A program made the position numbers and the translations under genes. The notes beneath the pieces are model-generated. The model was given only the letters and a program-made list of their open reading frames with translations, was not told the origin of the DNA and did not search any database. Below, in pieces: positions 4,070 through 37,957 of a DNA stretch of 39,727 bases. Within the stretch, counting starts at the first letter, position 1. Each line of letters begins with the position of its first letter. This DNA is from a virus: IMG/VR virus record IMGVR_UViG_3300035492_000012, positions 1-39,727 of that record; one strand, given 5' to 3'.

Positions 4070-4992
4070 TACACTACCGGAGGCGGCGGCATCGACGGCA
4101 GGTCGGCACCGGGCGCATCAGGTTCAAACGGCAGATCGGCGGGTGTGTCAGCTACTGCCGGAGCAGCCGGAGCTTCTGCAGCTGGAGCAGTTTGCGGAGC
4201 ACTAACCGCAGCTGGCGCAGCCGGTTGTTCCAGCTGTTGCTGCAGCTCCTCGGGCTTGGGCAAACCGCCACCACTCAGGAGAGCTTGTAGCGGACTGCCC
4301 TCAAAGTCCACGGCAGACAGGCACTTCTCTTGCAGCCAGTTCTTGCTCTTGCCTTCGTCGTTCTTGCCTTCTATGAACAGGCTATCCCAGGTCTCTTTGG
4401 TCGGCTTGTTCCACAGGAACAGCTTGTACAGATCGTCCGGCGCTTCCGGGATTTTGTACGGCTGGCCGCTCATGTTGTCGAACGGCGGCAGCGTCTCATC
4501 CAGCTTCAAGCGGTTACGAGGACCGCCTTTGGCCTTGAGGTTCACGTCGATGCGCAGCAGGAACGGCTTACCGAGGAACTGGTAGAACTGCTTGGCCTTG
4601 CCATCGTAGTTCATCTTGTCGAACGCCTTCTTCGCTGCCGCTTTCTCATTGTTTGAGATGCGGAGGTCGAAGGTGCGAATGATGCCCGGAGAGCCGTCTT
4701 CGTTCGCGTAGTTCTGCTGCGCACCTGGAGTCGGCTCTTGTCCAGGCACCAGGTTCGCCTTACCCCAGATCGCAAAGCCCAGGCGGAAGTTCATGGCCGG
4801 AGCCTTAACCTTACCTTCGTACTCGTCCGGGTGATGGCCGAACTCGATGTACTCCACCAGTCTTGCGAAGGCATAACCGCGCTCATACAACCGCGCCCCT
4901 CCACCGCCGGTACTGGTGTCGCTCATATCAATGGCTTCCTGATCCACCGCTTCTTGGATCAGGGCTTGGTACTTCTTCAACGCATCACTCAT
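4069..4992 (-). CDS. Conserved phiKMV-group DNA-metabolism protein, possibly a single-stranded DNA-binding protein
   Basis: 307-aa ORF between the polymerase and exonuclease genes. It has a long Pro/Ala-rich C-terminal linker ending in the acidic ADLPFEPD...ADLP, which resembles SSB C-terminal tips. The function is inferred. Confidence 0.5.
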   Translation of the reverse strand: MSDALKKYQALIQEAVDQEAIDMSDTSTGGGGARLYERGYAFARLVEYIEFGHHPDEYEGKVKAPAMNFRLGFAIWGKANLVPGQEPTPGAQQNYANEDGSPGIIRTFDLRISNNEKAAAKKAFDKMNYDGKAKQFYQFLGKPFLLRIDVNLKAKGGPRNRLKLDETLPPFDNMSGQPYKIPEAPDDLYKLFLWNKPTKETWDSLFIEGKNDEGKSKNWLQEKCLSAVDFEGSPLQALLSGGGLPKPEELQQQLEQPAAPAAVSAPQTAPAAEAPAAPAVADTPADLPFEPDAPGADLPSMPPPPVV

Positions 4993-7318
4993 TTACCACC
5001 TCACTTTTCTCATACATACTGGGACCGGCCTCCACAACTGCGGGGAACGGTACATCTGCGATGTCGTAGCCAAGCCGCGACATATACTTCGGCGTGTCCT
5101 CAAAGACAGCCTTCACGGGCAGAGCTACCTGATCCAACACAGACTTGTGAACGTCCAGGTAGAGTGCATCGTGTACATGGTTCGTCAGGAAGGCACGGCC
5201 CAGCGGGAATGCCTCGTTGACGAAGAAGTTCTTGCTCAGCAGCCAGCGCATGACGCGGCCTGCTGTGATCGTCATCAGGAAGCCAGCCTCACCCTGGCAC
5301 CAGTAGTTCGCAATCTGGGTAGGCTTATAGTCCATAATCAGCTCGCCGCCACGGCGCTGAGGGTACTCTCGGAACGAGTAGCATGTGCCGCCGGGAGCTT
5401 GGTAGTACCCGCGATGGTACACAGACCAGCGGCCATCGTCTGTCTGCTCGCGGCACAGGTTCTTCTCGCCCGTCTTGCACACGGCGTCGTACACCACATC
5501 ACGGAACGCAATACTTGCCGGGAACAGCGCCGCTTCGTTCTCCAGGAACTCAGCAGCCTCGTCCAGCGTACAGCCTGTGGCATACGCAATGCCACGAGCA
5601 GTCGCTCCGTACTGCGCAGCAAAGGCACGCGGCTTGATGTTCGTTCTGGCTTCTTTGACAACCTTGTGCATCGGGTGCTGCTTGTCATGCAAGATGGCCA
5701 GCAGCGCATCGTAGTCGTGTCCCTGCCAGTCATTGCGCTTACCGGCCAGTCGGTACAGGTGCATGTCAGTACCGTCGAGCAGCTTGTCCAGCAGGTTCTG
5801 GTCCTTGGACAGTGAAGCCAACATCACGACTTCCAGCGCCGTGTAATCGCACTCGACAATTACACCATCCTCGCCAAAGCGAGAGGTGAACATCTGCTTC
5901 ACGCGGCTGGTCCCATCTCTCGGCAGGTTCTGCAGGTTCGGGTCCGATGATGACAGACGGGCGGTCACTGTAGCTGTGATGTTCAGGTTGTGGTGGATAA
6001 TGCCGTCAGCACCAACGTACTGGAGCATCCCCTTCGTTTCCTTGATGTTCCCGTCTTTATCGTACTCATGCTTCCGATAGTACGTGCCGATGTCCTTGGC
6101 CAGGGCAGCACGGCGGCGCAGCAGATCAGCTGACTCAAACCCTTGTGTAGCCAGCAGTTCCAATACCTCGCCAGAGGTGCTGTACACGGGGCTGCCATCC
6201 ACCAGGGTCAGCTTGGATACCCAGTCGCCCTTGTCCTTGTGGAAGTTCTCCTGAATCAGCACAGGTAGGTCGGAGATTTTGATCAGGCCAGGAAACTGGA
6301 ACACGGCCTCACCCCACTTTAACTTCTCCTCGGCTGTGTCCAGGCGATGCACCTTCGGCAGCCCCTTGTTCTTACCGGACTTGTACTTGTCGCAGTCGCC
6401 GTGTGCAAGCACCGCAGCCTGGAATTGCTCAGCAGTCTGCACCTCAGATACTGGCAGGAACTTATCACCGAATGAGTAGTAGTCGGCCTTGACGTACTGC
6501 TTCGGCTCGTAAGGAACCTTCACCTTGTACTTGATCGGCCCTCCGTAGATGAAAGCCGAGACCATGTGCAGGCTACCCCAGTTGAACTCAAAGGTCTCGG
6601 GCAGCTCTGGTAGAAGGTCGCTGACTTGTGCCTCGATACCCTCCAGCTCTGCAGTATGCTCTGCTAGGTTACGCTCGGCAACTTCCAGGTTCACGTACAT
6701 ACCCGCCCACTCACACAGGCTGTACGCCGTCATACCCTCACAGCGCTCCAAGTACATATTGAACATACCGGCACGCTGCAGCATACTCCGCTGGCCGAAG
6801 AACACTTTCGCAGTGTTCTCGATGTCGCCACCGGGGCCAGCAAGGTACTCTCGCAGCAAGTCTCGGTCAATCTGCGAGGTCAGGTAGCCCTGCTCCCAGA
6901 GCACCTTCACCCCATCAACCTTCTGGGTGCCGCCGTACTTAGGCGCAGTCTCGTCCAGGCTGGGATACAGGTTTGTCTGGTGGCTCAGCAGGTACTCGGC
7001 CAATTGGGTGCACAGCACCCGGCCACCCCGCTGCATGAACTTCACGAACTCGTCGCGGTAGCGGGTCAGGAACCAGCTGTTCTCAAACATGGCGTTGTGT
7101 GCCACGAGGAACTGCACACCGTCCAAGTTGAACCAAGGTTCGGACTCAGCCTGCTCACGGGAGTCAAACTCTACGCAGGGCATCCCACCCAGCTTCTGAC
7201 CGGCCCAGTCGTAATCCTGCCACGCAGCCATGACGATGTAGTTCTGCTCGCAGTGCGGGCTGGCCTTGGCCCCCAGGTACTCGTGGTTCTCCGTTTCAAG
7301 GTCGATGACCCGGATCAT
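4985..7318 (-). CDS. Family A DNA polymerase with a 3'-5' exonuclease domain
   Basis: MIRVIDLETE (ExoI), CDYTALEVVMLA (motif A), KPRAFAAQYGA (motif B) and HVHDALYLD (motif C). The start is set at ATG 7318 (ATGA overlap with the upstream stop) rather than the ORF track start at 7372. Confidence 0.95.
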   Translation of the reverse strand: MIRVIDLETENHEYLGAKASPHCEQNYIVMAAWQDYDWAGQKLGGMPCVEFDSREQAESEPWFNLDGVQFLVAHNAMFENSWFLTRYRDEFVKFMQRGGRVLCTQLAEYLLSHQTNLYPSLDETAPKYGGTQKVDGVKVLWEQGYLTSQIDRDLLREYLAGPGGDIENTAKVFFGQRSMLQRAGMFNMYLERCEGMTAYSLCEWAGMYVNLEVAERNLAEHTAELEGIEAQVSDLLPELPETFEFNWGSLHMVSAFIYGGPIKYKVKVPYEPKQYVKADYYSFGDKFLPVSEVQTAEQFQAAVLAHGDCDKYKSGKNKGLPKVHRLDTAEEKLKWGEAVFQFPGLIKISDLPVLIQENFHKDKGDWVSKLTLVDGSPVYSTSGEVLELLATQGFESADLLRRRAALAKDIGTYYRKHEYDKDGNIKETKGMLQYVGADGIIHHNLNITATVTARLSSSDPNLQNLPRDGTSRVKQMFTSRFGEDGVIVECDYTALEVVMLASLSKDQNLLDKLLDGTDMHLYRLAGKRNDWQGHDYDALLAILHDKQHPMHKVVKEARTNIKPRAFAAQYGATARGIAYATGCTLDEAAEFLENEAALFPASIAFRDVVYDAVCKTGEKNLCREQTDDGRWSVYHRGYYQAPGGTCYSFREYPQRRGGELIMDYKPTQIANYWCQGEAGFLMTITAGRVMRWLLSKNFFVNEAFPLGRAFLTNHVHDALYLDVHKSVLDQVALPVKAVFEDTPKYMSRLGYDIADVPFPAVVEAGPSMYEKSEVVNE

Positions 7319-8908: not shown

Positions 8909-10183
8909 TCAAACTCCATCGGTGAATTGGCAGGTGTCTGCCTGGAATACTATCTCAGCCTCAACATGCCCAGGCTTACCGGGCATCTGAAACTTGTTCT
9001 TTGGTGTGGCTATGCCGCGCAGTTTAGACATCTCGGCGGAGTCTAGGGCACCCAGCATCAGGATGATGTCGGTTGCGCCTTGGATGCCGGTCTTACTATC
9101 CTTGAGTGCAGAGTACGGAGGAAACAGCATGTTCCCACCCTCTGCGCTGACCTGCACTGTAGCCATGCTCACAAAGTCGTGCCGAACAGCCATCTCCCGA
9201 GCCTGCTGCCACTTCTGCTCAGTCTCGTCGGCTTTGTTCACAGCACCGGCACCGGGCAGGCGGAAGTTCGCCAACATATCCCAGACCACCACGCATGGGC
9301 GCATGGCCTCGATAACCGTCTCGATTTGGGCAAGGCTGGCACCGTGCATATCCTTCACACGGATGCGGTCTGCCCGACCAACGGCCTTAGCGTACTGCGC
9401 TGCGAGCTTACCCTCATTGGACAAATGGATCAGCTCTGGCATCTTCAATCCCAGCGCCGCTTGGTACAGGCGCGGCACAATGCGCTGCCCCTTACCCTCG
9501 TTGTTCAGCCAGAGAATAGGGCGGTCTGGGTCGAAGAACTGGTCAACCTGCTTAGCGAAGTGCGCCAGAATGAAGGCGATAAGGGAGGTCTTGCCCTTGT
9601 CCGGGCGAGCGCCGATAGCGATACTAGCCCCGCCAAGCAGGCCCTTAATGTGCTCACGTAGCACAGTCGTCGGGAACTTCAAGCCGTAGTCTTCTCCCTC
9701 AGCTTTCAGGATGGACTCGATGCTGTCGTCGATCCAGTCGGTAGGGGCGGACTGGCTGATGTTGCGCAGAGTGTCCTGGGACATCCTGGAAACCTCGTGC
9801 GCCAGCTCCACCTCCCCACCGTTCTGGTACTTGGTCAGTAGACTGCCGAGCCTCCCGGCCAGCTCAAGTTCAGTGAGCTGCATCACAACGCCCGCAACCG
9901 AGTCCGCTGGGAACGTAGTCTGCAAACGACTGGCCTGATGTAGCGCTAGCTGTATCTGTTCTCGGGAGCTACTGCTGCACCGCAGCTTTATCAAAGCGCA
10001 CAACGAGTCCACGTCCAGGTACTCGTGGGTCGGGTATGCTTCCCAGTACACCGGATACCACTGCAACAACCACTGCGCATCCTGTCCCAGCATCTCCTTC
10101 GGCACCGACCCGGCAAGGGTACGGTACTTCTGCTTCTCGCGCAGCGCCGTCAGGATCAGCAGGTCGCTACTCATACAGTCCAC
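8909..10183 (-). CDS. DnaB/T7 gp4-type replicative DNA helicase
   Basis: Walker A GARPDKGKTS and Walker B-like CVVVWDML. RecA-fold helicase context next to the primase. Confidence 0.9.
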   Translation of the reverse strand: MDCMSSDLLILTALREKQKYRTLAGSVPKEMLGQDAQWLLQWYPVYWEAYPTHEYLDVDSLCALIKLRCSSSSREQIQLALHQASRLQTTFPADSVAGVVMQLTELELAGRLGSLLTKYQNGGEVELAHEVSRMSQDTLRNISQSAPTDWIDDSIESILKAEGEDYGLKFPTTVLREHIKGLLGGASIAIGARPDKGKTSLIAFILAHFAKQVDQFFDPDRPILWLNNEGKGQRIVPRLYQAALGLKMPELIHLSNEGKLAAQYAKAVGRADRIRVKDMHGASLAQIETVIEAMRPCVVVWDMLANFRLPGAGAVNKADETEQKWQQAREMAVRHDFVSMATVQVSAEGGNMLFPPYSALKDSKTGIQGATDIILMLGALDSAEMSKLRGIATPKNKFQMPGKPGHVEAEIVFQADTCQFTDGV

Positions 10184-12920: not shown

Positions 12921-13310
12921 TCATGTGTTAGCTCTCACGTAGTACCGGCGACCCTCATGCTCTACGACGTTCTGGTAAGTGCGTGCCCCCTGATGATCTG
13001 GGAGACTGACCAACTGGCCGATACAATCCCCGCCACCATTCTGCCAGCACCACACTCCGCGATCCTCGTCGAGGTACAGGTGCTGAACATTCCGGTAGGT
13101 GTTGTGAATGTCGTCATGCATAGCCAACACGTCTCCGAACGCATTGTCCGAATCTGCGTCGTGCATGACCACCATGTACGCATCTTCCCCGTCCCAGGTC
13201 ACAGCAGCCCCAGCACAGGACCAGTCTTCCTTGGCCAGCAGCGCCTCAATCTCGCTCGCCGGCAGGCCGGGAACCTTTAGGATGCCAACTGGATGTTTAA
13301 CGTCTTGCAT
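12921..13310 (-). CDS. Hypothetical protein (129 aa)
   Basis: AGGAG RBS upstream of ATG 13310. Acidic, coding-like composition. Confidence 0.75.
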   Translation of the reverse strand: MQDVKHPVGILKVPGLPASEIEALLAKEDWSCAGAAVTWDGEDAYMVVMHDADSDNAFGDVLAMHDDIHNTYRNVQHLYLDEDRGVWCWQNGGGDCIGQLVSLPDHQGARTYQNVVEHEGRRYYVRANT

Positions 13311-13337
13311 ACCTACTCCTGCATTGTCATTGCGTTC

Positions 13338-13580
13338 TCACGCATGTTGAAGTTCTCGGCCTTGCTGGCAACCTCTGCCATCAAGCACCTCCAAGTACTC
13401 CTCGCTAATGTAATCGGTGGCCCAGCGCCCATCGAAGCCGAACTCGACCTCGTAGTACATACCAGAGGCGTCGGAGTGTTTGCCAACCACCAGCCCCACG
13501 AGGCCGACCAGATGCGGCTCGGGACTCATATCGTCCTTCTTCCCCCGCAGGGCGCGGACTCGCCGCCCTACCAGACTCAT
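13338..13580 (-). CDS. Hypothetical protein (80 aa)
   Basis: ATG 13580 forms an ATGA overlap with the stop of 13577..14158 and has GGAGG just upstream. The ORF track start at 13703 would overlap that gene by 127 nt. Confidence 0.55.
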   Translation of the reverse strand: MSLVGRRVRALRGKKDDMSPEPHLVGLVGLVVGKHSDASGMYYEVEFGFDGRWATDYISEEYLEVLDGRGCQQGRELQHA

Positions 13581-14158
13581 ACCCTCCAACCCCACTGGCG
13601 CAACACGTCCAGCACGAACGCACGCTGATCCTCCGGGAAGTGCCCGTGGTCCTCGTGGTACTCGGATTGACCGGCGCTGTCGGCCACGTACAGGGCGATA
13701 CACAGGCCGTAATCGCTCGGAGGTAGGTCAGGGTACAGCTCCTGGATACCGCGCTGCACATCGTCCAATTGTGCCCGTGCGAGCTTTAGTTCTCCGAGGT
13801 AGTCCATCTCGCAGCCGGTGAGCAGGTGCCCGCAGTCGTGGAACCAGCGGAACCACAGGTTGCCCGGCTCGCCGTAGATGGACGTTTCACTGTGCAGCGG
13901 GGAGACCGGGAGGTAGCCTTGGTCGATGCAAGCCTGCAGGCCCTCTACACTCTCCGGCGCATCAGCGTCCACAGTGAGGTCAGTGTCCCAGAGCTTCGGC
14001 GTTTCAAGGTACTGTTCTACGCAGTGCTGGTACGCCTGCACTAGCCGCAGCGCAGCCTGCTCTACGGTGATGGTGGGCTTGGTGCCCTGTGTTTTTAGCT
14101 GCAGGGTGTACTGCGTGGCTGGCCGGGCGGTGGGGATCACAGCAAGTGCGGTGCTCAT
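13577..14158 (-). CDS. Hypothetical protein (193 aa)
   Basis: GGAGG RBS 6 nt upstream. Coding-like composition, with no motif recognised. Confidence 0.75.
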   Translation of the reverse strand: MSTALAVIPTARPATQYTLQLKTQGTKPTITVEQAALRLVQAYQHCVEQYLETPKLWDTDLTVDADAPESVEGLQACIDQGYLPVSPLHSETSIYGEPGNLWFRWFHDCGHLLTGCEMDYLGELKLARAQLDDVQRGIQELYPDLPPSDYGLCIALYVADSAGQSEYHEDHGHFPEDQRAFVLDVLRQWGWRV

Positions 14159-16109: not shown

Positions 16110-16367
16110 TCAGTGGTTACGCGCTTTCAGCGCTTTGTTAATGCGAGCGGATTTGTCTTTGCCGCGTGCTGCTTTACTTCCGTTGGGCTGCCAAGCAGTG
16201 CCCAGCGTACTCCGACCTTCGCTATGGTACTGGGTATTCATAGCCTTGCGTGCTTTGCGAGCCTCGGGCGTATTCTCAATAGCCAACGCCTTGATGGTCG
16301 CAGCACGCTTAGCGATACCGGCGTAACGGCTAGCTTGGGCCTTGTGCTTTTCAGCGGGGGTCTGCAT
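16110..16367 (-). CDS. Hypothetical highly basic early protein (85 aa); the first gene downstream of the early promoters
   Basis: AGGAG 9 nt upstream of the ATG. Lys/Arg-rich throughout. Confidence 0.7.
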   Translation of the reverse strand: MQTPAEKHKAQASRYAGIAKRAATIKALAIENTPEARKARKAMNTQYHSEGRSTLGTAWQPNGSKAARGKDKSARINKALKARNH

Positions 16368-16776
16368 GGCAGTAACTCCTATCAGATGATTCAGGCAAGC
16401 GTACTCCGTTGAACGCGCTTGACTTGAAGCATCTCAGACAGTCTAGGTACTGGGGACCGGACCCCGCAAGGCTGGCGTTAGTTCGCCATAACCTGCCCGA
16501 CAATCCCTAGACTGTCACCATGCCCCACTGCACGACCGTGGACGGATGGCACCGCTCGACCCGATTCTATTATGGCAGCGGGTCTCAGCCTGCCAGCCCA
16601 TCTATAACGCCGGGGCCTTGCTTCACCTTGCCTTCCATGCGCCAGCCCGAAAGCCTTTGCACTCCAGCCGAGACATCCTGTCAAGGTGCCGATCATTATC
16701 GGGACAGTTTGCCTTGGGACTTCCAGCTTGCGCCTTGGTCCGCCAGTCCGGCCCGTTTGCCGTCTTGCATGGTGCC

Positions 16777-16805
16777 ATTCTAGCGACACCGCATCATCTT
16801 GTCAA
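16777..16805 (-). promoter_or_regulatory. Sigma70-type early promoter (TTGACA-17 nt-TAGAAT)
   Basis: Read on the minus strand: -35 at 16805..16800 and -10 at 16782..16777. It faces the early genes. Confidence 0.6.
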
Positions 16806-17075
16806 GCCTAATTTGTCCTGAATCAGTTGGCTAAGCTGAAGCCTTCTTATCTATAGGTCCGGACTGGGTACCAGAAGGCGGCTAATCGCTCCCCAGTCCG
16901 TAGGCTAGCACACGTATGTACTGCGCTAGCCTTGTGTTACCTGATGCCCGATCTTGCTTGGCTTGTCAAGCTACCAGCCTAGACCGGATCACTTGACGAC
17001 ATTGTGAGATGGGTTTGCTTTACGTCCTATACCCCGCCCGGACTTGGTAGCTCACAACGTCTTGCCATGTGCTGC

Positions 17076-17104
17076 ACTTTAGAGGATACCTAGTACCCTG
17101 TCAA
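17076..17104 (-). promoter_or_regulatory. Sigma70-type early promoter (TTGACA-17 nt-TAAAGT)
   Basis: -35 at 17104..17099 and -10 at 17081..17076. It shares the -10 context TAAAGTGC with the next promoter. Confidence 0.6.
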
Positions 17105-17166
17105 GCCTTTGGTAGGAAATTGTCATCCTACCGCAGTGCCCAGCGTTCCGTGCTGGTATGGTTCGC

Positions 17167-17195
17167 ACTTTACATAGGTTTTAGTAGGCTGTCAA
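17167..17195 (-). promoter_or_regulatory. Sigma70-type early promoter (TTGACA-17 nt-TAAAGT)
   Basis: -35 at 17195..17190 and -10 at 17172..17167. Confidence 0.6.
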
Positions 17196-17214
17196 CACAT
17201 TGTTTCAGGCCGTG

Positions 17215-17240
17215 GCTATAAAGTGCCATAATCTAGGAGA
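17215..17240 (+). promoter_or_regulatory. Inverted (plus-strand) copy of the candidate phage RNAP promoter
   Basis: GCTATAAAGTGCCATAATCTAGGAGA matches the minus-strand sequence at 37957..37932 at 23 of 26 positions. Confidence 0.4.
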
Positions 17241-17486
17241 AGTCCGCAGGGCTGCCCGCTAGGGCTGGCCGGTGGCGAACCGCGCTAGCCGGTAGGCTGG
17301 CAAGGTGCGGGTAGTGTGTCCAGTGGGGTACAGGTAGGATAGCCATAGGACCTGCATAGGATGCACATAGGATGACAGCGGGGTAGGTATAGGGATACGC
17401 ACAGGCAAAGGCGCCATAGGCAGCGTAGGCAAAGCATAGGCAAGCCGCACCAGAGTGCACACCGCAAGGTGGATGCCCATAGGATA
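17234..17486. repeat. Array of about 13 short TAGG-core direct repeats, mostly (C/G)(A/T)TAGG(A/C), with 10-11 bp phasing
   Basis: TAGG starts at 17234, 17260, 17293, 17335, 17346, 17357, 17368, 17384, 17390, 17417, 17426, 17437 and 17480. About one occurrence would be expected by chance. Confidence 0.85.
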
Positions 17487-17505
17487 CAGCATAGTACCGC
17501 ACCGA

Positions 17506-17533
17506 TTGACAGCAGCAAGCCAGCATGTACAAT
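17506..17533 (+). promoter_or_regulatory. Sigma70-like promoter on the plus strand (TTGACA-16 nt-TACAAT), pointing away from the early genes
   Basis: Hexamers read directly. No gene lies downstream on this strand. Confidence 0.45.
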
Positions 17534-17615
17534 ACACCACATGGCAAGGCATACCGCCGCGCGGTACTCAAGCTGCTGGGTACACTGTACCGCTGAAGAA
17601 AATGCAGATGCGGGG

Positions 17616-17643
17616 TTGACAGCCCCGCTGGATGGTGTACACT
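17616..17643 (+). promoter_or_regulatory. Sigma70-like promoter on the plus strand (TTGACA-16 nt-TACACT), pointing away from the early genes
   Basis: Hexamers read directly. The -10 lies within the second copy of the 12-mer GTACACTGTACC (17580..17591 and 17637..17648). Confidence 0.45.
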
Positions 17644-17847
17644 GTACCCATCGAAGCAGCGAGGGAGACGCACCGCCACAGACCCAGCACCCTGCCTACG
17701 GCAGAGGCCCAGTTTCCCACGGAGAACACCGCAGGCTGCCCAGAGCACCCGGCAGGGGGGAAGGTCGCGCGGTGATGGGTGGGAAGGCGGCTTGCATAGA
17801 CGCACCAAATTTAAGCGCCTATAGAACACGCCAAGCCACACGCACTA

Positions 17848-17922
17848 CCCACGCACAGACCACCCACGCACCAGCTCACACCACCCACAGAGCCTCCCAC
17901 AGAATCCCACAGGAGGCCACAG
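17848..17922. repeat. Array of CCCAC(A/G) short direct repeats immediately downstream of the last gene
   Basis: CCCAC at 17848, 17863, 17884, 17896 and 17906, plus GCCAC at 17916. The last four units are spaced 10-12 bp apart, and the plus strand here is C/A-rich. Confidence 0.8.
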
Positions 17923-17929
17923 TCAAACC

Positions 17930-18124
17930 TTACGCGCCAGCAGCATCCACCGCAGTCACAGCGGCCAGGGTCGCGGTGACCTGGGCATCGAACGCGGTGT
18001 TGTACTCGGCGCTCTGCGGTTGCTCATGGCCGCCTTGGGCGTGCTTCTGAGCCAGCACAGCGAGCTTGTACACTTCGTCGCGCAGGGCTTCTACTTCTTC
18101 ACGGGTTGCACTTGCAATAGCCAT
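17930..18124 (-). CDS. Hypothetical protein (64 aa); the last gene of the transcription unit
   Basis: AAAGGAA RBS, preceded by a TACTAC motif. Ala-rich and helical in appearance. Confidence 0.7.
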   Translation of the reverse strand: MAIASATREEVEALRDEVYKLAVLAQKHAQGGHEQPQSAEYNTAFDAQVTATLAAVTAVDAAGA

Positions 18125-18147
18125 ATCAGTCTTCCTTTCTTCAGTTA

Positions 18148-18166
18148 TACTACGTTTGTACTACGG
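18148..18166 (-). promoter_or_regulatory. Second copy of the CCGTAGTA-N5-GTAGTA motif
   Basis: The plus strand reads TACTAC-N5-TACTACGG, the same as 12534..12552. It lies 23 nt upstream of ATG 18124. Confidence 0.35.
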
Positions 18167-18185
18167 TTTACTTCAGGGTTGCACT

Positions 18186-18419
18186 TCAGTTGTCCGAACC
18201 AGATTCACCTCGGGCGAACCCGTTCAGACTGTTACAAGTGTCGAGCGCGAGTTGGTACGCAGAGACAGCCCTGGCCAAGCCAGCATTGTCTCGCACGAAG
18301 ATACTCGGGTGCTCACACCGGGCAGGCTCAATTGGTACAGTTACCGTACTGGCACAGCCCATCAATGACCCGATCAGGCACAGCACCGCCAGCCCAATCA
18401 GGGTTCTCTTGGATACCAC
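18186..18419 (-). CDS. Rz1-like outer-membrane lipoprotein spanin (o-spanin)
   Basis: Signal peptide with lipobox LIGSLMGC. It overlaps the 3' end of Rz (18328..18419) in another frame and extends beyond it. Confidence 0.7.
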   Translation of the reverse strand: MVSKRTLIGLAVLCLIGSLMGCASTVTVPIEPARCEHPSIFVRDNAGLARAVSAYQLALDTCNSLNGFARGESGSDN

Positions 18420-19142: not shown

Positions 19143-19335
19143 GAGCCGCCCTCCGCTTCTCCCGCCAGAACTTGAAGGTCTCGTAAGCCTTCGGCAGCGC
19201 GTTCCACAGCAAGACCAGGGTGTACACCAGGGTCACTACAGCTACTACGTGGTTCAGTGTGATTGCCGAAGCCACTACCCCTCCCCAGGCAATACCACCT
19301 TTCAGGCTCTCTTGCCAGTAATTAAAATTAGTCAT
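19132..19335 (-). CDS. Holin (pinholin-like, two TM segments)
   Basis: 67 aa with two hydrophobic helices and a basic C-terminus (REKRRAARGD). Located directly upstream of the SAR endolysin. Confidence 0.75.
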   Translation of the reverse strand: MTNFNYWQESLKGGIAWGGVVASAITLNHVVAVVTLVYTLVLLWNALPKAYETFKFWREKRRAARGD

Positions 19336-21107
19336 CGGACTCTCCGTCGCAGCGCCTTCACGCTACTCTTTGGTTTCGCCCCGCGCTTCCCGTAACCCAT
19401 AGGGTCGTCTAGGAACTTGCGGGCTTCTTCCTTTTCACGATGCCGCTTCGCTTTATCCTCGTCAACGGCAAGGTGGTCCACGAGGCTGCGGCAGAGTTGC
19501 TCCAGCACATCTACTCGGTCATCCTTGGCCAGTGAGCCGCGATCCGTGGTGATGTTCTGTAGCTGGAACAGGCCGCTGTACTGCAGCCGCCGATCCATAG
19601 GGTATTGCTGTAGTAGCTCGATGTCCATATCAAGCGCCCGCTTGTGCAACACCAAGCGGTGCCGCTGCAGAATTGGACGAATAGTGTCGATGATACGACG
19701 CTCTTTCTGCCCGGTGGCGTTTGCATCGGTGATGCCAACACCCTCAACACGCTTCTTACCACGCTCGTCAAGGCCGTTGAAGTAGTTCTGGATAAGTCGC
19801 GTCACCGCACCAGCACCCATATTCTTCTCCACTACTACACGCTTGACGCTGAACTCTTTAACCACATCAACCAGCTTCTCCAGGTTGGCATCAGCAAAGC
19901 CGCCTCGGAAGCCACCCCAGGCTAGAACGTGCAGGTACGGACCAACCACACCGCCAACTGCGAATGCCAGTTCGTCCCCACCGTCGCTGGCAGGGTCTAC
20001 GCACATCACAATGTCGGTTAGAGGTCGGAACACCTCGGACATACTAGCTGGGCGATAGAACTCAGGCTTCAAGGTGCCCAGCTCTGGCGGCACTGGCCAT
20101 GCCAAGCGGGGGTCTGCTGCCCAAGTCAGCACCTCTGGTACAGAGGTAGGTGCGAAGTCCCCTACGATCAGGTCGCGGATTTTCAGCTGCTGACGCAAGG
20201 CATCCATCAACGCCGTGTTCAGCATAAACTGCAGCTCGAAGGTCTCAGGTCCTTGGTCAAGCTCTTTGTCGCACAGGTCTGCTTCATTGAAGCGATGCGG
20301 ATCGGTGGGCCATCCACGGCTACCGTCCAATCCTCCGCCAGTGCGGCAGCGGTCCCCGAGCATACCCATACGCTCGACGATACTCGGCGCAAGATGCTCG
20401 CCGTAAGCCTTCTGCTGCTTATCTGTGGGGAAGCGTCCAGGCCAGATACGCACAGCGAAGCCGCGCTGCGGGAGGCGGTTATAGATGCTATCCTTGGTCT
20501 GCGGGGTGCCCAGGTACATAATGCGCCCGTGCGTGCAGATACTGGTGAACTCTTTGGATAGCAGCTCCAAGTGCGACCGCTGCTGGGCAGTCAGGCCATT
20601 CTTGGTAGTCTCGATGTCGTCAGGAATCAGAACGTCCGCACGTAGCCCCTGCAGGGATGCTGTGATACCAATACAGTTCACACTTGCGGACTTGTCAATA
20701 CCTTTCAGGCTCCAATGCACATCGAACTCAACTGTCGATACTCGGTCTCCCGCGTACTTATCAGGGCGCAGATACTCCAGCTTATCCCACTTGTGGATCA
20801 AGCTGTGCATCAGCATCCCGTTCTCGTCGGCCTTGTCCTGCGCCCCGGAGATAAGGAGTACACGGCAGCTGGGTGCCTGTATCAAGGACCAGATACCGTA
20901 CAGGCAGGCAATGGTGCTCTTGGCCTCACCGCGCTGCGCCTCTGTCATTTGCTTGTCTGGACCGTACTGCATCCAGTCCGCAATATCTTCCTGCATCCAA
21001 GTGGTGTCGAAGCCGAGGAACGCCATAGCGTCTTTGCAGAACTCCCGGAACTCCGGGTAAAGGTCCCGCATTAACTTCGCACGCTCATAGCGTTCATCGA
21101 CTTTCAT
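19332..21107 (-). CDS. Terminase large subunit
   Basis: 591 aa, T7 gp19-like. ATPase motifs QRGEAKST and VLIPDDIET, with a C-terminal nuclease region. Confidence 0.92.
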   Translation of the reverse strand: MKVDERYERAKLMRDLYPEFREFCKDAMAFLGFDTTWMQEDIADWMQYGPDKQMTEAQRGEAKSTIACLYGIWSLIQAPSCRVLLISGAQDKADENGMLMHSLIHKWDKLEYLRPDKYAGDRVSTVEFDVHWSLKGIDKSASVNCIGITASLQGLRADVLIPDDIETTKNGLTAQQRSHLELLSKEFTSICTHGRIMYLGTPQTKDSIYNRLPQRGFAVRIWPGRFPTDKQQKAYGEHLAPSIVERMGMLGDRCRTGGGLDGSRGWPTDPHRFNEADLCDKELDQGPETFELQFMLNTALMDALRQQLKIRDLIVGDFAPTSVPEVLTWAADPRLAWPVPPELGTLKPEFYRPASMSEVFRPLTDIVMCVDPASDGGDELAFAVGGVVGPYLHVLAWGGFRGGFADANLEKLVDVVKEFSVKRVVVEKNMGAGAVTRLIQNYFNGLDERGKKRVEGVGITDANATGQKERRIIDTIRPILQRHRLVLHKRALDMDIELLQQYPMDRRLQYSGLFQLQNITTDRGSLAKDDRVDVLEQLCRSLVDHLAVDEDKAKRHREKEEARKFLDDPMGYGKRGAKPKSSVKALRRRVR

Positions 21108-21109
21108 AC

Positions 21110-21412
21110 TTAATGCCTCATGTCAGGGTACAGATCATCCAGGTCTGTTTTAGCAGCAACGACAGAGCGAGGCGCAGTCTTGCGCCTCCCCTCCATCTCT
21201 GCCTGGAACTCTGCCCGAAGTTTCTCCAATGCGTCCCCATCCATAGGGTCCGCAGTCACGTTATTATCCTTGAGGAACTTAGCCACCGCAGACTTATCCG
21301 CAGCAGGGACAGGGATCGGTGGGTCTTGGCTCATGTACCAGCGGAGTTCATTCAGCATGACCTCCGCCAGTATCCCATGCAGCTCCTCAAGGCGGTCTTT
21401 TTTAGCAGCCAT
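21110..21412 (-). CDS. Terminase small subunit (DNA maturase A-like)
   Basis: 100-aa ORF immediately upstream of the large subunit, as in the phiKMV group. The call rests on position and size. Confidence 0.65.
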   Translation of the reverse strand: MAAKKDRLEELHGILAEVMLNELRWYMSQDPPIPVPAADKSAVAKFLKDNNVTADPMDGDALEKLRAEFQAEMEGRRKTAPRSVVAAKTDLDDLYPDMRH

Positions 21413-21516: not shown

Positions 21517-21936
21517 TCATTTGTCATTCTCCAGCGCTTTTTGCGCGTCGCTTTCTTCCATTCCATGCCTCACCATAGCACGGACTGCAAACTCAGCGGA
21601 TGAGTAGGGCTGGCCATTCTGGTATCCGTACCTGAGCTGGGCCTTATAGCACGCAAGTTCCATCTGTATTCTGATGGCCTTGATTCGGTAGAGGGCGTGC
21701 TGCACCCATGGTGCGGTGAGACCGATGCCGTACAGCTCTGCAATCACAAAATGACCAAGTGTCGAGGCTGCGACGATGGTGCCAATCACACAATACCACC
21801 ACTGCCTAACATGCAGTTTTTCGTGCTCTAGCAGACCGTGATCGTTCCGCGCAGACGAGCTTATTTTGATACGCCACATGCGCTGATTGCCTGGTGGGTT
21901 GAGTCCGTCTTTATAGCTCAGGGAGTAGTATTGCAT
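21517..21936 (-). CDS. Hypothetical HExxH-motif membrane protein (139 aa)
   Basis: LLEHEKLHVRQ followed by the hydrophobic segment YCVIGTIVAASTLGHFVIAELYGIGL. It lies in the low-GC block shared with the tailspike C-terminus. Confidence 0.7.
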   Translation of the reverse strand: MQYYSLSYKDGLNPPGNQRMWRIKISSSARNDHGLLEHEKLHVRQWWYCVIGTIVAASTLGHFVIAELYGIGLTAPWVQHALYRIKAIRIQMELACYKAQLRYGYQNGQPYSSAEFAVRAMVRHGMEESDAQKALENDK

Positions 21937-24379: not shown

Positions 24380-27300
24380 TCTCCTCGAATAGCGTCAATG
24401 AGCAGCGCGGTGCCCGGTAGTAGCGAAACTCCGGGAACAACCATAGTCGCACTCTTAACCAAATCAGCGGTTCCCTCACGGAACTCGCCAGTCATAAGCC
24501 CACCCAGACCACGCCCTGCGGTAGGTGCGGCATCCAGCACGCCGGTTAGCGGCACAGAGAATCCGCCACGCCCGCCAGTCAATCCAATGATACCCGCCGC
24601 GTCAGCAGCAAGGCCCAGTCCGGCGGTGTACCCAATACCTTTAGCCAGGATATTTTGCAAGCCTTCCTCGGATAGGTCCAGATCACCTTTACGCGCCTCG
24701 TTCAGCGCTACCATCATAGATGTGAGCGGATACTGGAAAGCCAGCAAGGTAGCCAGCGCACCGATACCGCCTTGGTGCAGCGTGCCACGCAGCAGCTTGT
24801 TGTGCGCAAGGCCCACGAATGCGCGGAACTGGCCTAGCACTTGACCTACTGCGGAGCGGCCCAGCAAGCGAGACCCAATCCCCTGCCCACTGCGGGAGAA
24901 GATCACAGCATCATCCATTATGCGCAGAGCCACGTCCATAACGTCTGAGATATCCTCTCGACGCCATGCGGCCCAGTTCATCTGCTTCGCATTCCCCCTA
25001 GTATATGTCACTTTATCTAGGGATCGCTGCACTCGCCTCCACACTTCATCAGTGAGACCGTACTGACGCAGCAGCTCCAAATCCTTAGCGCTACCCTTGA
25101 ATGCTCTTGCGAACGTATTCAGGGCAAGGTTGGCATTCATCCGAGACTGGTGCGCATGAACGAACTTCATGGCGTTCAGGTACGGTACAGCTTGCTTGCC
25201 TGCGTGGAGCAGCCTATCGAAGGCGGTATCCTGGCTCGACAAGTTCACATCATGCTGGCGCAACCAGGGACGGATACGCACGTCTCTGGCCAAGTCCACA
25301 CCCAACACAGTGCGCAGTTCATCGGCTAGGTCTGGGTCCTTTGCTGCGTCTTGCAACACCTTGCGCACACCGGGGAAAGTCCGCAGGAACTCGCTCATGG
25401 TGCGCACTGCGCCGTAGCGATGTGCTACAGTTGCATAGTCTGCAACCTGCCATAGCCCCGAGGCGCTAAGCATAGTGGCGTCTGCTATGCTCTTCAAGCG
25501 CTGCGCACCTTGCCCTAAGATGTTAGCCTCCGGGCGAAGACCTGTGAAGTCAGACAGCAGCCCATCCAAAGCCAGCATCTGATCGCGGCGGGCCTGTTCA
25601 GGCAGACCTTTCAATGTGTCTGCATACTGCCGCTTAAAGGCTTCGATACTCGCATCATCTCCACCGATACCCGCCTTAGCCAAGGCACTCCGACCAGACA
25701 TCACCTGGACGTAGTTGTCTGCCAACCGGCCCAGATCAGTGTCAATCATATCCGTCATTCGGAAGGTGCTGCCATCCGCGTTACGGATGCCTACAGTCAT
25801 ATCCAGCGGGATACGGTCCTTAGCGTACTTAACCTGCCCAGCTTCGTCGAGGTTCTGCTCTACGCGGCCCATAATAGATTGCACGCGAGCATCGCTGATG
25901 CCACTCTCTTTGAGCATAGCACGTAGCATCTCAGTGTCTGTCTTGCCGAGCGTTCCGAAGAACTCGATACCTTCGTTACGCAAGCGTGCCTGTGCCCGGT
26001 CGTAGATCGCGCCTCCAATCAAACGAGCGGCTTCGTTGTCTATCCCCGGCATACCACGTCGAGCAGCTTCGGAGATAAGGTCTACCACCTCTTTGCGAGA
26101 GCGGCTGGTTACTGCGGCAGCGTTCCAGCTGCGGTGAAAGTAGCCTTGACGAGGCTTGAACTCCTCAAAGCCACGAAGCCCAGCATCACGCGCAATCTCG
26201 CCCATACGGTTAGACATTTGCTCGTACACATCTGCCAGCCGCTGCACCCGCCCGTGAACTGCGCCCGGTATCGACTGTCCGTACTTGTTCCAGTACGTGT
26301 CTCGGCGGATCAGCTCCTCTGCAACCTGAGCTTCCAGATTATCTCTGGCATCCATGTACCGCCCTGTGCGGTCGAACTTGCGCTGTAGCCAACTGAAACC
26401 ATCCTCTGCTAGAGTCTTCTCCAACAGGTCGTCGTACTGCTTACGCCAACCGTCCATCTCGTTGAACATTAGGCGCTGGTTAGAAGCAGCGTTGCCTGCG
26501 CCGAACAGATCAGCGCGGCGTACTGGATCGTCTACAAGCTGCTTCAACAGCTCAGCACGCTCAGTAGCACCTGCAGCCTGATTCAACCAGAGCAGGTCTA
26601 CCTCTGTGGTGAACTCATTCACTGTAGAGGCTAATTTGCTCGGATTAGCCCATGTAGGCACATCCGGAGAGATGTCCCCAGGCGTGCCAGATACGTCAAC
26701 TCGTCGGGCACTCCCGCCAAGCAACGCCCCAATACCACCCCCAATAGCCGCGCTCAGCAGGTAATCCAAGCTGGATACTTCTTTACCGGCCACGTCCGCT
26801 GCCGCCAGCGGGGCTACTGTCCCAGCACCTACAGCTACGCCGGTTGCCAATCGGCCCAGACGCAGGGCCTTGGTAGTGCCGAAGGTCGCGTAGTCTGTAA
26901 GCAGCGTGAGCGGGTCTAGCATACCGATCAAGGCCATGCCGCCGTGCTGGCTAAGGATACGTTGACGCTCCTGCGCATCTGCAGCCTCGGAAGCGCGGAA
27001 GTGCAGTTCGTTAAGGGTGCCCGCATTAGCGAGCTGCAGCTGAGTTTCTCGATTGTTCTCCAGACCGTACTCGTCCAGGATACGCCCCATGTGCTGCGTC
27101 GGGTCGAAGCTGGGATCGTAGTCCTTAAAAGGCTCTTCCAGCTGCTCGGCCAAGAGCCGACCCACCCAGGCCGACTCCGACTCCTGCACTACAGCGCCGA
27201 AAACCTCGCCAGCGGTACGTGCCTCTGCCTCAATGTCCGAGGCCAGTGCGGCCTCACGTTGAGCAGCTGCAGGCTGCACCACATCTTGCAGGATAGCACC

Positions 27301-30615: not shown

Positions 30616-32957
30616 TACACACGCCTCCCGCTGCGTTGGTGGTATCGGTAGCCGTACTCAATACTCGTGATATTCAAGTCGTACACATCGTCAGTGGCTA
30701 GCTCCAGCCTGGAAGAGTACATATCCAATCGCGCTGGGATGTACTGGTATCCGCTCGCGACCTGAGGTAGCCCTACGCTAAGCTCTGGCGAGCCGAAGGT
30801 GAGTGTACTTGTCACGTACTCCCGCTGTGGGCGGTAGCGATCCCCGATACTGTACGTGAACTCCCCGGTGTTCTGCACCGTCACAATGTACTTGTGCAGC
30901 AGCGCTTTCGCCGTGGTGATTGGTACGTCGTTGCGGTCTCTGACCGTTGGGGACGTTGGGACCAGCAGGCTGCGGAATCTCCGCCCTACCGTGTACGTGT
31001 CCCCAGCCGCAGCACCGAGCAGCCGGTAAGTAACTTGGCCACCTGCCCGAGAAACTTCCTGTGCCAGGGTCCGCATGTACGGGTATTCACCAGAGGTCTT
31101 GAAGGCCACGGCCTCGGTCCAAGCATCTGCCAAGCGCTCATCTACAACGAACTCGCCAGCAGAATCTGTGGTGATCTGCACCTGCAAATCTAACCGGCCA
31201 GTGGTAGCTGCGGAGTCGCCAGCCCCGATCCGTAAATCCACCTGAGCATACACCAGCTCAGTGCCTACCCGAAGCAGGCAGTACATCTTATCACCAACAA
31301 ACCAAGCTGACTCCACGTCCCAATGGAACACCCACTTGTGCCAAGCATGGTGTGCCTTCTCAGCACCGGCCCACAGAAACTCATGCACGAGCAGCTCTTT
31401 CAAGTTCTCGGAGAATCCGGCCACTAGAATGTTTGAGGTGCTGGATGCCGTCATAAACCGCGTAGTGCCTTTGATGTACCTGGGGATATGGTTTGTCACA
31501 TCCCCCGCGATTAGCTGTGAGTCTGTGTACTGACTCGGCACGGCCTCCCATAGACCATCATACCCGTCGCTGCGTGGGGCGCTAAAGAACACGCTGCGCC
31601 CAGTGGTGACAGGGACCGCATCCAGACGTGCCTCGTACTGCGACATTACCGAGATGTTGGCATTTGACGGAGTGACAGCGTTCACTCCTGGGATCACACT
31701 CTGGTAGCGGTCTGCCCAAAGCACCAAGTCTTTGTTGAATGCTGTGGCCCAGGTGTAGGGAGCCGCTTGAGCTGCGGTACTGGCAACTTCTATAGGATCG
31801 TCGGACTGCAGCCCTGTGATCGTACTACGGTAGAACCGGAGCGGGTTGTTTGAGGCGCTCATGTTCACGTAGTCGTTTGCCAGAATTACCAGCCGCCCTT
31901 GGAAGGCGGCAAGCCCAGTGATACCTTTTTCGATAAACTTGGGGGTGGCGTTACTCTCATCGTCGCCTGCGGCCCGCCGTTCCCATACAGGGGAGTCCAG
32001 CGTCCACGTCCCATCAACGCGGCGCATTCGTCGGGGCATATTGCCTAGCTGTGTCAAGAACCCGTAACCGGCGTCCTCTACCCAGCGACGTTCTGCATTG
32101 TCCCAGCGGTAATACGTGGGTGTCCTAGTGGTGCCCACGCCCATAATCAGCCCGTCAGCTTCGTCAGCCAACCTGGCAGGCAAGTCGGAAAGTTCTCGCA
32201 CTTTACCAAAGTTGGATGTGCGGATGTAGTTTGTACCGGAGTCGGAACTGGTGGCGAACGCATCGTCATCTGAGGTAATGTACAAGTATCCGCCAGTGCG
32301 GTAGTATGTAAAGCCTGCGGCTGTGCCGATCAGTGCATCCGCCTCTGCCGCGTCCGCGAGCTTGTCCACGATGTACTCTGGAGTAGCTTGTGCAGCATGG
32401 TCTGCGGAACTGCCGTCCGGAGTGGTGAAAGAAACGCTAGTCGTCACCCCTGTGGTCTGGTTAGTAATAGCCAGGGTGAACGTCTTGGAGAACTGCCCAG
32501 CGGTGACAAACAAATACCCAGCCTTGGTGGGGTCTGGGTATCCGGCTTGCTCTGCAGCGATACTGGCCGTGGGCTGCACCTCGGTGTTTGCTACGTAAAC
32601 CTCATCCCCAAGGGTTGTGAGTCTCAGTGCGTTTGCATTACTGGCTTGAAAATACGTGTCCGTAAAGGTAGCCAGGACAGTACCACTTTCAGTAAGCACA
32701 CGAATACTACCGGCGTCTGTGTCCCACAAAAACACCACCCTGGCGTTCGTTACCGTGGTCTCGTATCGGCCAAGATGCTGCGAAGGTGTGCTGATACCCA
32801 GAAAGCTCAGGAATCGCAGAGGTGCTCGCCGCCGCAAATTGAAGGTCAGGTCGGAGGTCATATTGATCTGCTCCTCCACCTGCCCAGGGAGGCGATCTTT
32901 GAAGTCCTGTTGACTCACGCCGAACAGGAGTTGCTTATGGCTGCTTTCGTAGTACAT
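30615..32957 (-). CDS. Tail tubular protein B (T7 gp12-like)
   Basis: 780 aa. The N-terminus (LLFGVSQQDFKDRLPGQVEEQINM) is typical of the family. Confidence 0.9.
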   Translation of the reverse strand: MYYESSHKQLLFGVSQQDFKDRLPGQVEEQINMTSDLTFNLRRRAPLRFLSFLGISTPSQHLGRYETTVTNARVVFLWDTDAGSIRVLTESGTVLATFTDTYFQASNANALRLTTLGDEVYVANTEVQPTASIAAEQAGYPDPTKAGYLFVTAGQFSKTFTLAITNQTTGVTTSVSFTTPDGSSADHAAQATPEYIVDKLADAAEADALIGTAAGFTYYRTGGYLYITSDDDAFATSSDSGTNYIRTSNFGKVRELSDLPARLADEADGLIMGVGTTRTPTYYRWDNAERRWVEDAGYGFLTQLGNMPRRMRRVDGTWTLDSPVWERRAAGDDESNATPKFIEKGITGLAAFQGRLVILANDYVNMSASNNPLRFYRSTITGLQSDDPIEVASTAAQAAPYTWATAFNKDLVLWADRYQSVIPGVNAVTPSNANISVMSQYEARLDAVPVTTGRSVFFSAPRSDGYDGLWEAVPSQYTDSQLIAGDVTNHIPRYIKGTTRFMTASSTSNILVAGFSENLKELLVHEFLWAGAEKAHHAWHKWVFHWDVESAWFVGDKMYCLLRVGTELVYAQVDLRIGAGDSAATTGRLDLQVQITTDSAGEFVVDERLADAWTEAVAFKTSGEYPYMRTLAQEVSRAGGQVTYRLLGAAAGDTYTVGRRFRSLLVPTSPTVRDRNDVPITTAKALLHKYIVTVQNTGEFTYSIGDRYRPQREYVTSTLTFGSPELSVGLPQVASGYQYIPARLDMYSSRLELATDDVYDLNITSIEYGYRYHQRSGRRV

Positions 32958-37931: not shown

Positions 37932-37957
37932 TCTCCTAGTATATGTCACTTTATAGC
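37932..37957 (-). promoter_or_regulatory. Candidate phage RNAP promoter at the RNAP/structural-module boundary
   Basis: The minus strand reads GCTATAAAGTGACATATACTAGGAGA. A 20-nt exact repeat occurs at 25016..24997, and the GTGACA core resembles the SP6 promoter ATTTAGGTGACACTATAG. Confidence 0.55.

Follow-up and report, generated by a model that had tools for sequence, protein, structure and literature searches.

The TAGG array and its surroundings

The window analysed here is the IMG/VR virus record IMGVR_UViG_3300035492_000012 at its full length of 39,727 nucleotides (nt), and the element in question is a cluster of TAGG motifs on its plus strand at 17234–17486. The window is a circular assembly (k=127) with an exact 127-bp terminal overlap (positions 1–127 and 39601–39727) and a unit length of 39,600 bp, so any terminal repeat has been collapsed in it. 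All long open reading frames (ORFs) lie on the minus strand, and the window is reverse-complemented relative to coding orientation. The RNA polymerase ORF starting at 39727 probably continues upstream over the artificial contig end. The gene set comprises T7-type terminase, portal, tail and internal-core genes, a family A DNA polymerase and a single-subunit RNA polymerase. Pfam matches were obtained for RNA_pol, DNA_pol_A and Head-tail_con, and the Pfam families on record for the phage are Terminase-T7, T7_gp14 and Phage_T7_tail. Its terminase large subunit (TerL) was 57–64% identical to those of Pseudomonas Krylovirinae (LKA1, phi-2, the MR phages and phiKMV-like phages). Judged from these similarities, the phage is a Krylovirinae-like podovirus of the T7 supergroup, of Autographiviridae type, and the array belongs to a lineage without a close cultured relative.

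The array sits in the sole large non-coding gap of the genome, 16368–17929 (1.56 kb), which is bordered by the end of the late genes (holin, endolysin, Rz/Rz1 and a 64-aa ORF) on one side and by the first early gene on the other. Replication genes are more than 7 kb away, and the neighbours of the array are promoters and the genome end. Coordinates of all features are collected in Table 1.

An initial annotation of this DNA had reported thirteen TAGG cores on one strand where about one would be expected, and all 13 were recovered (17234, 17260, 17293, 17335, 17346, 17357, 17368, 17384, 17390, 17417, 17426, 17437 and 17480). The number expected in 253 bp was 0.76 from the window-wide plus-strand frequency (Poisson P ~2e-12) and 1.29 from 20,000 shuffles of the local composition, among which the maximum reached was 7. 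Other 253-bp stretches of the window contained at most 5 TAGG each, and the opposite strand at most 4. The longer form CATAGG(A/C), which many cores were said to share, was found in six copies in the array out of eight in the window and was absent from the other strand; the first three cores (17234, 17260 and 17293) do not have the CA prefix. The true array therefore has about 10–11 units within 17335–17495, and cores 17260 and 17293 may be degenerate units or chance occurrences. When the units were aligned on TAGG, the conserved part was only ~6–8 nt, (C)(A)TAGG(A/C)(A/T), and the spacers had no common sequence. On the coding strand the array reads as pyrimidine-rich CCTATG repeats. It is strand-specific and non-coding, and Rfam (E <= 1) and tRNA scans of the region returned nothing relevant.

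The same annotation had described the array as helically phased, and this proved correct only in part. The spacings on which it relied were accurate, and the 11-bp run extends to four members once 17335 is included (17335, 17346, 17357, 17368); three identical gaps in succession, in the range of 9–12 bp, have P ~0.001 under random placement. Units 17417, 17426 and 17437 are spaced 9 and 11 bp. Across the whole array, phase coherence was not significant, the best Rayleigh R (0.57, at 11.2 bp) being equalled by 30% of random placements, and for the ATAG(G/T) subset P was ~0.11. Helical phasing of the array is local only.

Genome-end landmarks and repeat zones in relatives

The initial annotation had suggested testing whether related phages keep the array while the flanks drift. 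Three further assemblies found by an exact TerL protein look-up were 100% identical to the window over 16300–18200 and were therefore uninformative in this regard. Beyond these, relatives in IMG/VR and in a metagenome collection reached TerL identities of at most 74–77%, the 77% match being too short. In the metagenomic relatives L001–L006, L081 and L083 we found no TAGG/CCTA cluster; other cores occupied the array position. A nucleotide search of the non-coding region against GenBank phages yielded only an unrelated leader element (see below), and in local blastn searches of the region against the relatives only the 64-aa ORF aligned.

What the relatives have in common is a strand-specific zone of short repeats at the equivalent position, which was found in T7, LKA1, phiKMV and six metagenomic relatives, with different cores. 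T7 (NC_001604) has the heptamer CCTAAAG 11 times in its first 340 nt, inside and beside its 160-bp terminal repeat, and related units precede the right-end copy of that repeat. In LKA1 (NC_009936), CCTGG occurs ten times at 191–364, straddling the terminal-repeat boundary at 298, and in phiKMV, units of CTCCCTGG, TTGCCTCT and CCTCTG lie at ~230–680, around the boundary at 414. Among the metagenomic relatives, L004 has (CC)TGTGC 12 times, L006 has CCTGTGC 13 times, L003 has CCTGCGC followed by five copies of TCCTGGTTCG, and L083 (67% TerL identity) has several repeat families at the array position. The closest lineage, L081 (74% TerL identity), has 11–12 copies of (C)TGGGGTTG(C) at 340–660 nt from its inferred terminus. 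Position and strand specificity of the arrays are conserved and their sequence is not. The comparison that the initial annotation had suggested thus gave a mixed result, with a short-repeat array always in this place and TAGG itself replaced in every relative found.

A search for the pattern CATAGG-N5 in three repeats retrieved 50 viral contigs, mostly with unrelated perfect tandem repeats. Eight were T7-like, with 11-bp CATAGG arrays shortly downstream of TerL. Orientation relative to TerL was mostly opposite in these eight contigs, and we regard the shared core as coincidental.

The position of the array relative to the genome end was derived from a multi-phage alignment. A junction block, GCGC(C/T)TAAATTTGGT.CG ... 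CC/TCCCAC, is common to the window, LKA1, L003, L004 and L006, and is also present in L083 and L081. The slash in this block corresponds to the annotated start of the 298-bp terminal repeat in LKA1 (from 41295/6 in the record), and the mapped end of phiKMV likewise begins with TCCC. By this correspondence, the left physical terminus of the phage would be at ~17784 on the minus strand. When the junction motif was used as a DNA probe, only relatives already known and chance matches were returned. Distances from this inferred terminus are 168 and 278 nt for the leftward sigma70-like sites, 301–524 nt for the array, 548–568 nt for the antisense promoter start, 589 nt for the first of the rightward early promoters and 1417 nt for the first early ATG.

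A second landmark is TTGCCT, which is rare on the coding strand (6–11 copies per genome) and is still clustered less than 800 nt from the terminus in 7 of 7 phages. Its start in LKA1, 298, coincides with the mapped terminal-repeat boundary, and phiKMV, whose mapped boundary is 414, has copies starting at 417, 435 and 450. The window has TTGCCT at 342, 353 and 377 nt from the inferred terminus (P = 0.0015). The copies at 342 and 353 are the coding-strand form of TAGGC units 17437 and 17426. The remaining unit of the triplet, 17417, gives CTGCCT on the coding strand, and the copy at 377 falls just outside the three. The parallel with the LKA1 and phiKMV boundaries leads to a predicted terminal repeat of ~340 bp (338–341) in this phage, whose inner boundary would fall at ~17443–17447. 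This length is within the 216–428 bp reported for phiKMV-like phages (PMC3765740). On the other side of the junction block, by analogy of position with the T7 right-end repeats, the G-rich repeats at 17835–17925 are the right-end counterpart of the array. Relatives were seen to have right-end repeats of their own, TGGGTGTAGGTGC in L004 and CTTGAG in L081.

Several additional observations were made at the ends of related genomes. In phi-2 (NC_013638), a 105-bp tandem repeat (x 5.8) and many alternating copies of a 17-mer are annotated at 42242–43144; the repeats at this Krylovirinae genome end are of another and much larger kind. L003 contains ~700 bp of extra coding-looking sequence (13111–13809) between the lysis genes and the junction block, which is absent from L006 (~4800–4855) and suggests an insertion hot-spot beside the genome end. 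In L083, at ~6843–6935 on the leftward strand, reading by eye suggested a hydrophobic ORF of 30 aa (MEAIVIGYLVVAAVATLACWLGCGMACKAL) that has a good Shine-Dalgarno sequence; it is on the antisense strand, within the presumed terminal repeat.

Promoters and predicted antisense transcription beside the array

The initial annotation had placed a plus-strand phage-promoter-like element directly upstream of the array, and this element is a real promoter copy. The window contains three copies, with 0, 3 (of 25; 17216–17240) and 4 mismatches; all other matches in the window had at least 9 mismatches, which is chance level. The TAGG at 17234 belongs to the initiation region of the promoter (CTAGGAGA), and the +1 position was assigned by analogy with T7-type promoters. 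The array is thus predicted to lie within the first ~250 nt of a leftward transcript. Only two coding-strand copies of the phage promoter were detectable genome-wide, which implies very long transcription units, as reported for phiKMV-like phages.

The same arrangement is found in other phages. In phiKMV, 709–735 reads GGTTATGTCACACACAATGG as reverse complement, and the coding strand has one copy in gp37 and another following the RNA polymerase gene. L004 has a promoter element at 13656 and an inverted copy at 9690. In LKA1 we found a four-copy element (coding-strand form AAAAGAATTGTCGCACTAGCATGA) at 458–481, with inverted copies at ~17842–17865, ~21820–21843 and ~31505–31527, a distribution of the LUZ19 promoter type with the antisense copy at the left end. 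The 'phage LKA1 specific promoters' annotated in the LKA1 record (CCGCTGCACTCGCAGC) are a different motif, and this annotation probably needs revision. For LUZ19 itself, published cappable-seq data (PMC10914365) gave the motif GgtTATGTCACacACAnnGG. Two of its promoters directly follow the RNA polymerase gene, another is in the structural region, and P001 is antisense and in the early region. P001 is described there as conserved in 15 other Phikmvvirus species, with transcripts that run leftward over the genome end. By analogy of position and orientation, the antisense promoter of the window is the counterpart of LUZ19 P001.

Table 1. Features of the window at and around the TAGG array (positions refer to the 39,727-nt window)
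Feature	Position	Strand	Description
Array core	17335..17495	+	Ten TAGG cores and one CATAGT; consensus (C)(A)TAGG(A/C)(A/T)
TAGGA subfamily	17335, 17346, 17357, 17368, plus 17480	+	First four exactly 11 bp apart
TAGGC subfamily	17417, 17426, 17437	+	
Outlying TAGG cores	17234, 17260, 17293 (17234..17296)	+	Without CA prefix
TAGGC(A)A units	17415..17446	-	Coding strand GCTTGCCTATG / CTTTGCCTACG / CTGCCTATG; predicted inner boundary of direct terminal repeat
Junction block, conserved	17777..17831	-	GCGCTTAAATTTGGTGCG...GCC/TTCCCACCC; inferred left terminus ~17784
G-rich short repeats	17835..17925	-	CTGTGGG x3-4 (~11-bp spacing), GTGCGTGGGT x2-3; directly before junction block
Antisense (leftward) phage RNA polymerase promoter copy	17216..17240	+	CTATAAAGTGCCATAATCTAGGAGA; predicted start near G17236
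Phage promoter, coding strand	37932..37956	-	CTATAAAGTGACATATACTAGGAGA; directly after RNA polymerase gene, before Shine-Dalgarno sequence and ATG
Phage promoter copy, 4 mismatches	24994..25018	-	Structural region, inside 1006-aa gene upstream of tail-fibre gene
Rightward early sigma70-type promoters	17195-17167, 17104-17076, 16805-16777	-	Plus TTGACA at 16969; facing first early gene
Leftward sigma70-like promoters	17506-17533, 17616-17643	+	11/12 and 10/12 match; between array and inferred terminus
Palindrome GGTACACTGTACC, two copies	17577-17590, 17637-17650		Associated with leftward sigma70-like sites
First early gene	16367-16110	-	
Terminase large subunit	19332-21107	-	Candidate protein acting on genome-end module
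Terminase small subunit	21110-21412	-	Candidate protein acting on genome-end module

Besides the phage promoters, host-type promoters flank the array on both sides. The two leftward sigma70-like sites are strong matches, point against all genes and lie inside the presumed terminal repeat. A comparable leftward site (TTGACA-16-TAGAAT) is present in phiKMV at 146–119, inside its terminal repeat, and the leftward promoter A0 is annotated in the T7 record; no comparable leftward sigma70-like site was found in LKA1 and L004.

A further, unannotated element was noticed in the early leader. It is ~75 nt long (16522–16597, minus strand; the alignment spans 16515–16612) and nearly invariant in distant podoviruses, including Erwinia phages Micant and Loshitsa2, Salmonella KKP 3828, Enterobacter SDFMU_Pec and Vibrio VPp1, BA6, Ph19S9E2 and G1, and in five IMG/VR contigs (L091–L095). 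In the GenBank examples examined it was mostly in unannotated DNA, and in Micant and KKP 3828 it was just upstream of an early gene. A structural model has four helices including an H-type pseudoknot, with 96.4% of cells paired compared with 34–52% in slid controls and ten pairs with compensatory changes; a loop, YGCCAUrAWAGAA, and a 3' hairpin, CCACGGUnGUGCAGUGG, are invariant. The element had no match in Rfam 15. It was not seen in the closest relatives by eye and local blastn, which is not a model search, and its distribution is accordingly patchy. This element may be a leader RNA that acts on host transcription, and it may be of more interest than the array itself.

Interpretation and comparison with known systems

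In our preferred explanation, to which we give about an even chance of being right, the array constitutes the zone of short repeats lying along the inner edge of the direct terminal repeat. It would be transcribed leftward and act in cis in processing of the concatemer junction and formation of the ends. In coding orientation, the proposed module order would be the last late gene, the G-rich right-end repeats, the junction block with the left terminus (~17784), the terminal repeat, the pyrimidine-rich CCTATG array, the antisense phage promoter firing leftward through the array, and the rightward host-type early promoters. In replicated concatemers, the repeat units would serve as redundant cis sites for the packaging and maturation machinery, especially the TTGCCT-type units, which coincide with the mapped end of the terminal repeat in relatives, and these sites would determine where one genome end is cut and where the terminal repeat stops. 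Through leftward transcription from the antisense promoter, phage RNA polymerase would be brought to the junction or be stalled there. In T7, pausing of RNA polymerase at the concatemer junction has been linked to gp18/gp19 (PMC3276506), and stalling here would mirror that pausing and its coupling to terminase action. The data establish where the array lies, how the region is built, that this layout recurs in relatives and what the promoter is; binding of proteins, the place of the cut in this phage and a coupling to transcription belong to the proposed model. Among the functions that the initial annotation had listed, terminase recognition sites gave the best fit, as TAGGC(A)A is the reverse complement of the TTGCCT at the LKA1 and phiKMV boundaries.

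A more specific and more tentative form of this explanation, which we consider possible and rather unlikely, is that the array and the antisense promoter form a transcription-coupled packaging or end-formation site that mirrors that of T7, in Krylovirinae generally. In T7, polymerase that starts at phiOR arrives at the junction from the right and pauses. Here, transcription would begin within the left end and proceed leftward over the repeats, and the polymerase would mark where the terminal repeat ends on its inner side, at the TTGCCT-type units. Such a mark could direct cutting by terminase or, by way of a purine-rich R-loop, help to prime duplication of the terminal repeat. If true, this would provide a function for arrays that have been unexplained since the T7 sequence, and for the puzzling antisense promoter.

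Several observations weigh against the preferred explanation. The terminus proposed for this phage rests on a short conserved block; aligned as a pair, the window and the right end of LKA1 gave no significant score by themselves, and the terminus assignment thus depends on the multi-phage block and on constant position. Repeat cores are not conserved among relatives, and the L081 core is G-rich on the coding strand, so that neither sequence nor strand composition is universal. L003 and L006 have terminase and lysis genes that are 95% identical, and their arrays differ by whole-unit indels, CCTGTGC/CCTGCGC interconversion and replacement of distal units. The repeat sequence does not co-vary with terminase. 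Similarly, core columns were no better conserved than others between L004 and L006 (0.71 vs 0.65), in a region rich in indels. As far as can be judged from these comparisons, unit turnover and unconserved cores argue against tight sequence-specific recognition of each unit, and the overall picture would be one of redundant, quickly replaced units and not of precisely conserved operators. To our knowledge, the function of the T7 arrays has never been established. Finally, the LUZ19 authors suggested another role for the antisense promoter, that of blocking read-through into early genes (PMC10914365).

An alternative view is that the array is a mere by-product whose sequence has little or no specific function. 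The terminal-repeat edge would undergo repeated nicking, strand displacement and recombination, with short units appearing and being replaced there through slippage or unequal exchange, under constraint on composition or length only. In its favour, phages whose terminase genes are 95% identical differ by whole-unit indels and unit replacement, conservation of the cores does not exceed that of the spacers, each lineage has a different core, and phi-2 has the 105-bp x 5.8 tandem repeat. However, the window retains its core and the exact 11-bp spacing among spacers that do not resemble one another, unlike the product of recent slippage, and the arrays are strictly strand-specific and occupy the same position from T7 to Krylovirinae, with TTGCCT units at mapped boundaries in two phages. 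We consider this view unlikely, though the most probable of the rival readings.

An R-loop or primer role is doubtful. Purine-rich RNA starting at 17236 would remain paired with the pyrimidine-rich template and act as primer for leftward DNA synthesis across the terminal repeat, which could provide a secondary T7-type origin or duplicate the terminal repeat ahead of packaging. This is the nearest surviving form of the transcription-primed origin, recalling T7, that the initial annotation had suggested. A real phage promoter is directly upstream, and the strand corresponding to the antisense transcript is purine-rich (59–66% vs 47–48% genome-wide) with positive GC skew in the window, LKA1, phiKMV, L004 and L006; in LUZ19, antisense transcripts cross the genome end (PMC10914365). 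In L081, however, composition is opposite and the transcript-like strand is not purine-rich. The parallel with T7 origins also fails with regard to the DNA downstream of the promoter, which is 56–58% GC (0.565–0.585 across the array) and has no AT-rich unwinding region, and in phiKMV, GC skew has been used to assign the origin to the DNA polymerase gene (PMC3765740).

A role as part of a transcriptional insulator appears improbable. Antisense transcription, possibly pausing on the repeats, would collide with late read-through over the concatemer junction and keep late transcription out of the early genes. The promoter is exactly between the genome end and the early promoters, and a block of read-through into early genes is what the LUZ19 authors proposed for the homologous P001 (PMC10914365). 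However, an insulator needs the promoter alone, which leaves the repeats, their strand specificity and the boundary-linked TTGCCT units unexplained, and no terminator-like site was found in the array.

Two further alternatives are very improbable, and to the same degree. The units could be classical replication-origin iterons bound cooperatively by an initiator protein, as the initial annotation had considered, which agrees with multiple same-strand repeats and local 11-bp spacing. This proposal did not hold up, because the array has no global phasing and no AT-rich unwinding element, no initiator gene is nearby and the core is absent from every relative found. We know of no T7-group phage that uses an iteron-type initiator. 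Alternatively, the repeats could act as RNA, in which recurring CAUAGGA(U)G motifs would titrate ribosomes or a CsrA/RsmA-type host regulator that binds GGA. Seven TAGGA units are on the transcribed strand downstream of a real promoter, and CCAGGGA (LKA1) and CCAGGA(C/U)G (L003) are found on the corresponding strand. However, RNA folding was not significant for either strand of the region, and the antisense transcript folded no better than shuffles (z = -1.24), which gives no support for presentation in hairpin loops; the units of L004, L006 and L081 are without GGA, and the array motif is one nucleotide too long for the CANGGA consensus. That the region encodes a protein with repeated peptide units is almost certainly wrong: all three minus-strand frames are open across the array and a 77-aa gene (17259–17492, minus strand) was called in three assemblies, but the frames are open because the strand is purine-poor, the core falls in all three frames because the period is 11 bp, none of the four ORFs overlapping the array had a PHROG match, and the equivalent regions of relatives could not be aligned as protein, which agrees with the earlier statement that such an array is not typical of coding sequence.

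Knowledge of repeat arrays at T7-group terminal repeats goes back to the publication of the T7 sequence, and the antisense promoter has been published for Phikmvvirus. The value of the present data is comparative: the array position is constant and the cores turn over fast in T7, LKA1, phiKMV, the window and six metagenomic relatives, and in Krylovirinae-type phages the array is always between the terminus and a conserved antisense phage promoter. The coincidence of TTGCCT with the boundary and the constant order of terminus, array and antisense promoter are useful comparative observations, which offer a testable prediction and no new mechanism. With their help, the physical ends of such phages could be inferred even where a metagenomic assembly is circular, and they frame a testable model for delimitation of the terminal repeat, a long-standing loose end in T7-type packaging.

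Known arrays of terminase recognition sites provide one comparison. The R sites of lambda cosB and the SPP1 pacL/pacR sites are recognition arrays for the terminase small subunit, and like the array of the window they consist of multiple short, oriented, non-coding repeats beside a terminase cut site, a predicted one in the window. Unlike cosB and pac arrays, cores of the window type are not conserved between phages with nearly identical terminases.

T7 is similar to the window in having a short conserved core, variable spacers and a single orientation in non-coding DNA at or beside the terminal repeat. In both, the array is upstream of the early host promoters, a second array is on the right-end side and a leftward host promoter is nearby, and the cores on the coding strand both start with CCTA. 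The two arrays differ in period (~13 bp in T7, 11 bp in the window) and in core sequence. The T7 phage promoters near the ends, phiOL and phiOR, point rightward, and no antisense phage promoter is annotated in T7, unlike the window. The T7 repeats were reportedly named SRL and SRR by Dunn and Studier in 1983; our literature search found no usable description of the T7 arrays.

LKA1 is closer. The junction block and the TCCCAC terminus are common to both phages, and LKA1, like the window, has an array followed by the inverted phage-promoter copy (458–481) and then by host promoters from 475. Its core, (C)CCTGGT, is unlike that of the window, and its record gives the label 'phage-specific promoter' to a different motif.

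The left end of Phikmvvirus (LUZ19/phiKMV) differs from the window in promoter sequence (AAAGTGACATATACTAGGAGA in the window, GgtTATGTCACacACAnnGG in LUZ19), in the dominant core (TCCTATG in the window, CTCCCTGG and CCTCTG in phiKMV) and in TerL, which is only ~57–64% identical. Short repeats are not discussed in the portion of the LUZ19 report used here (PMC10914365). The order of elements is the same as in the window, and so is the distribution of phage promoters, with a copy directly following the RNA polymerase gene, another in the structural region and an antisense one that separates the genome end from the early host promoters (PMC10914365). Phikmvvirus and the window also share a TCCC-type left terminus after a TAAAT/TGG junction block, a leftward sigma70-like site within the terminal repeat, and TTGCCT units at the terminal-repeat boundary, which in the window is the predicted one.

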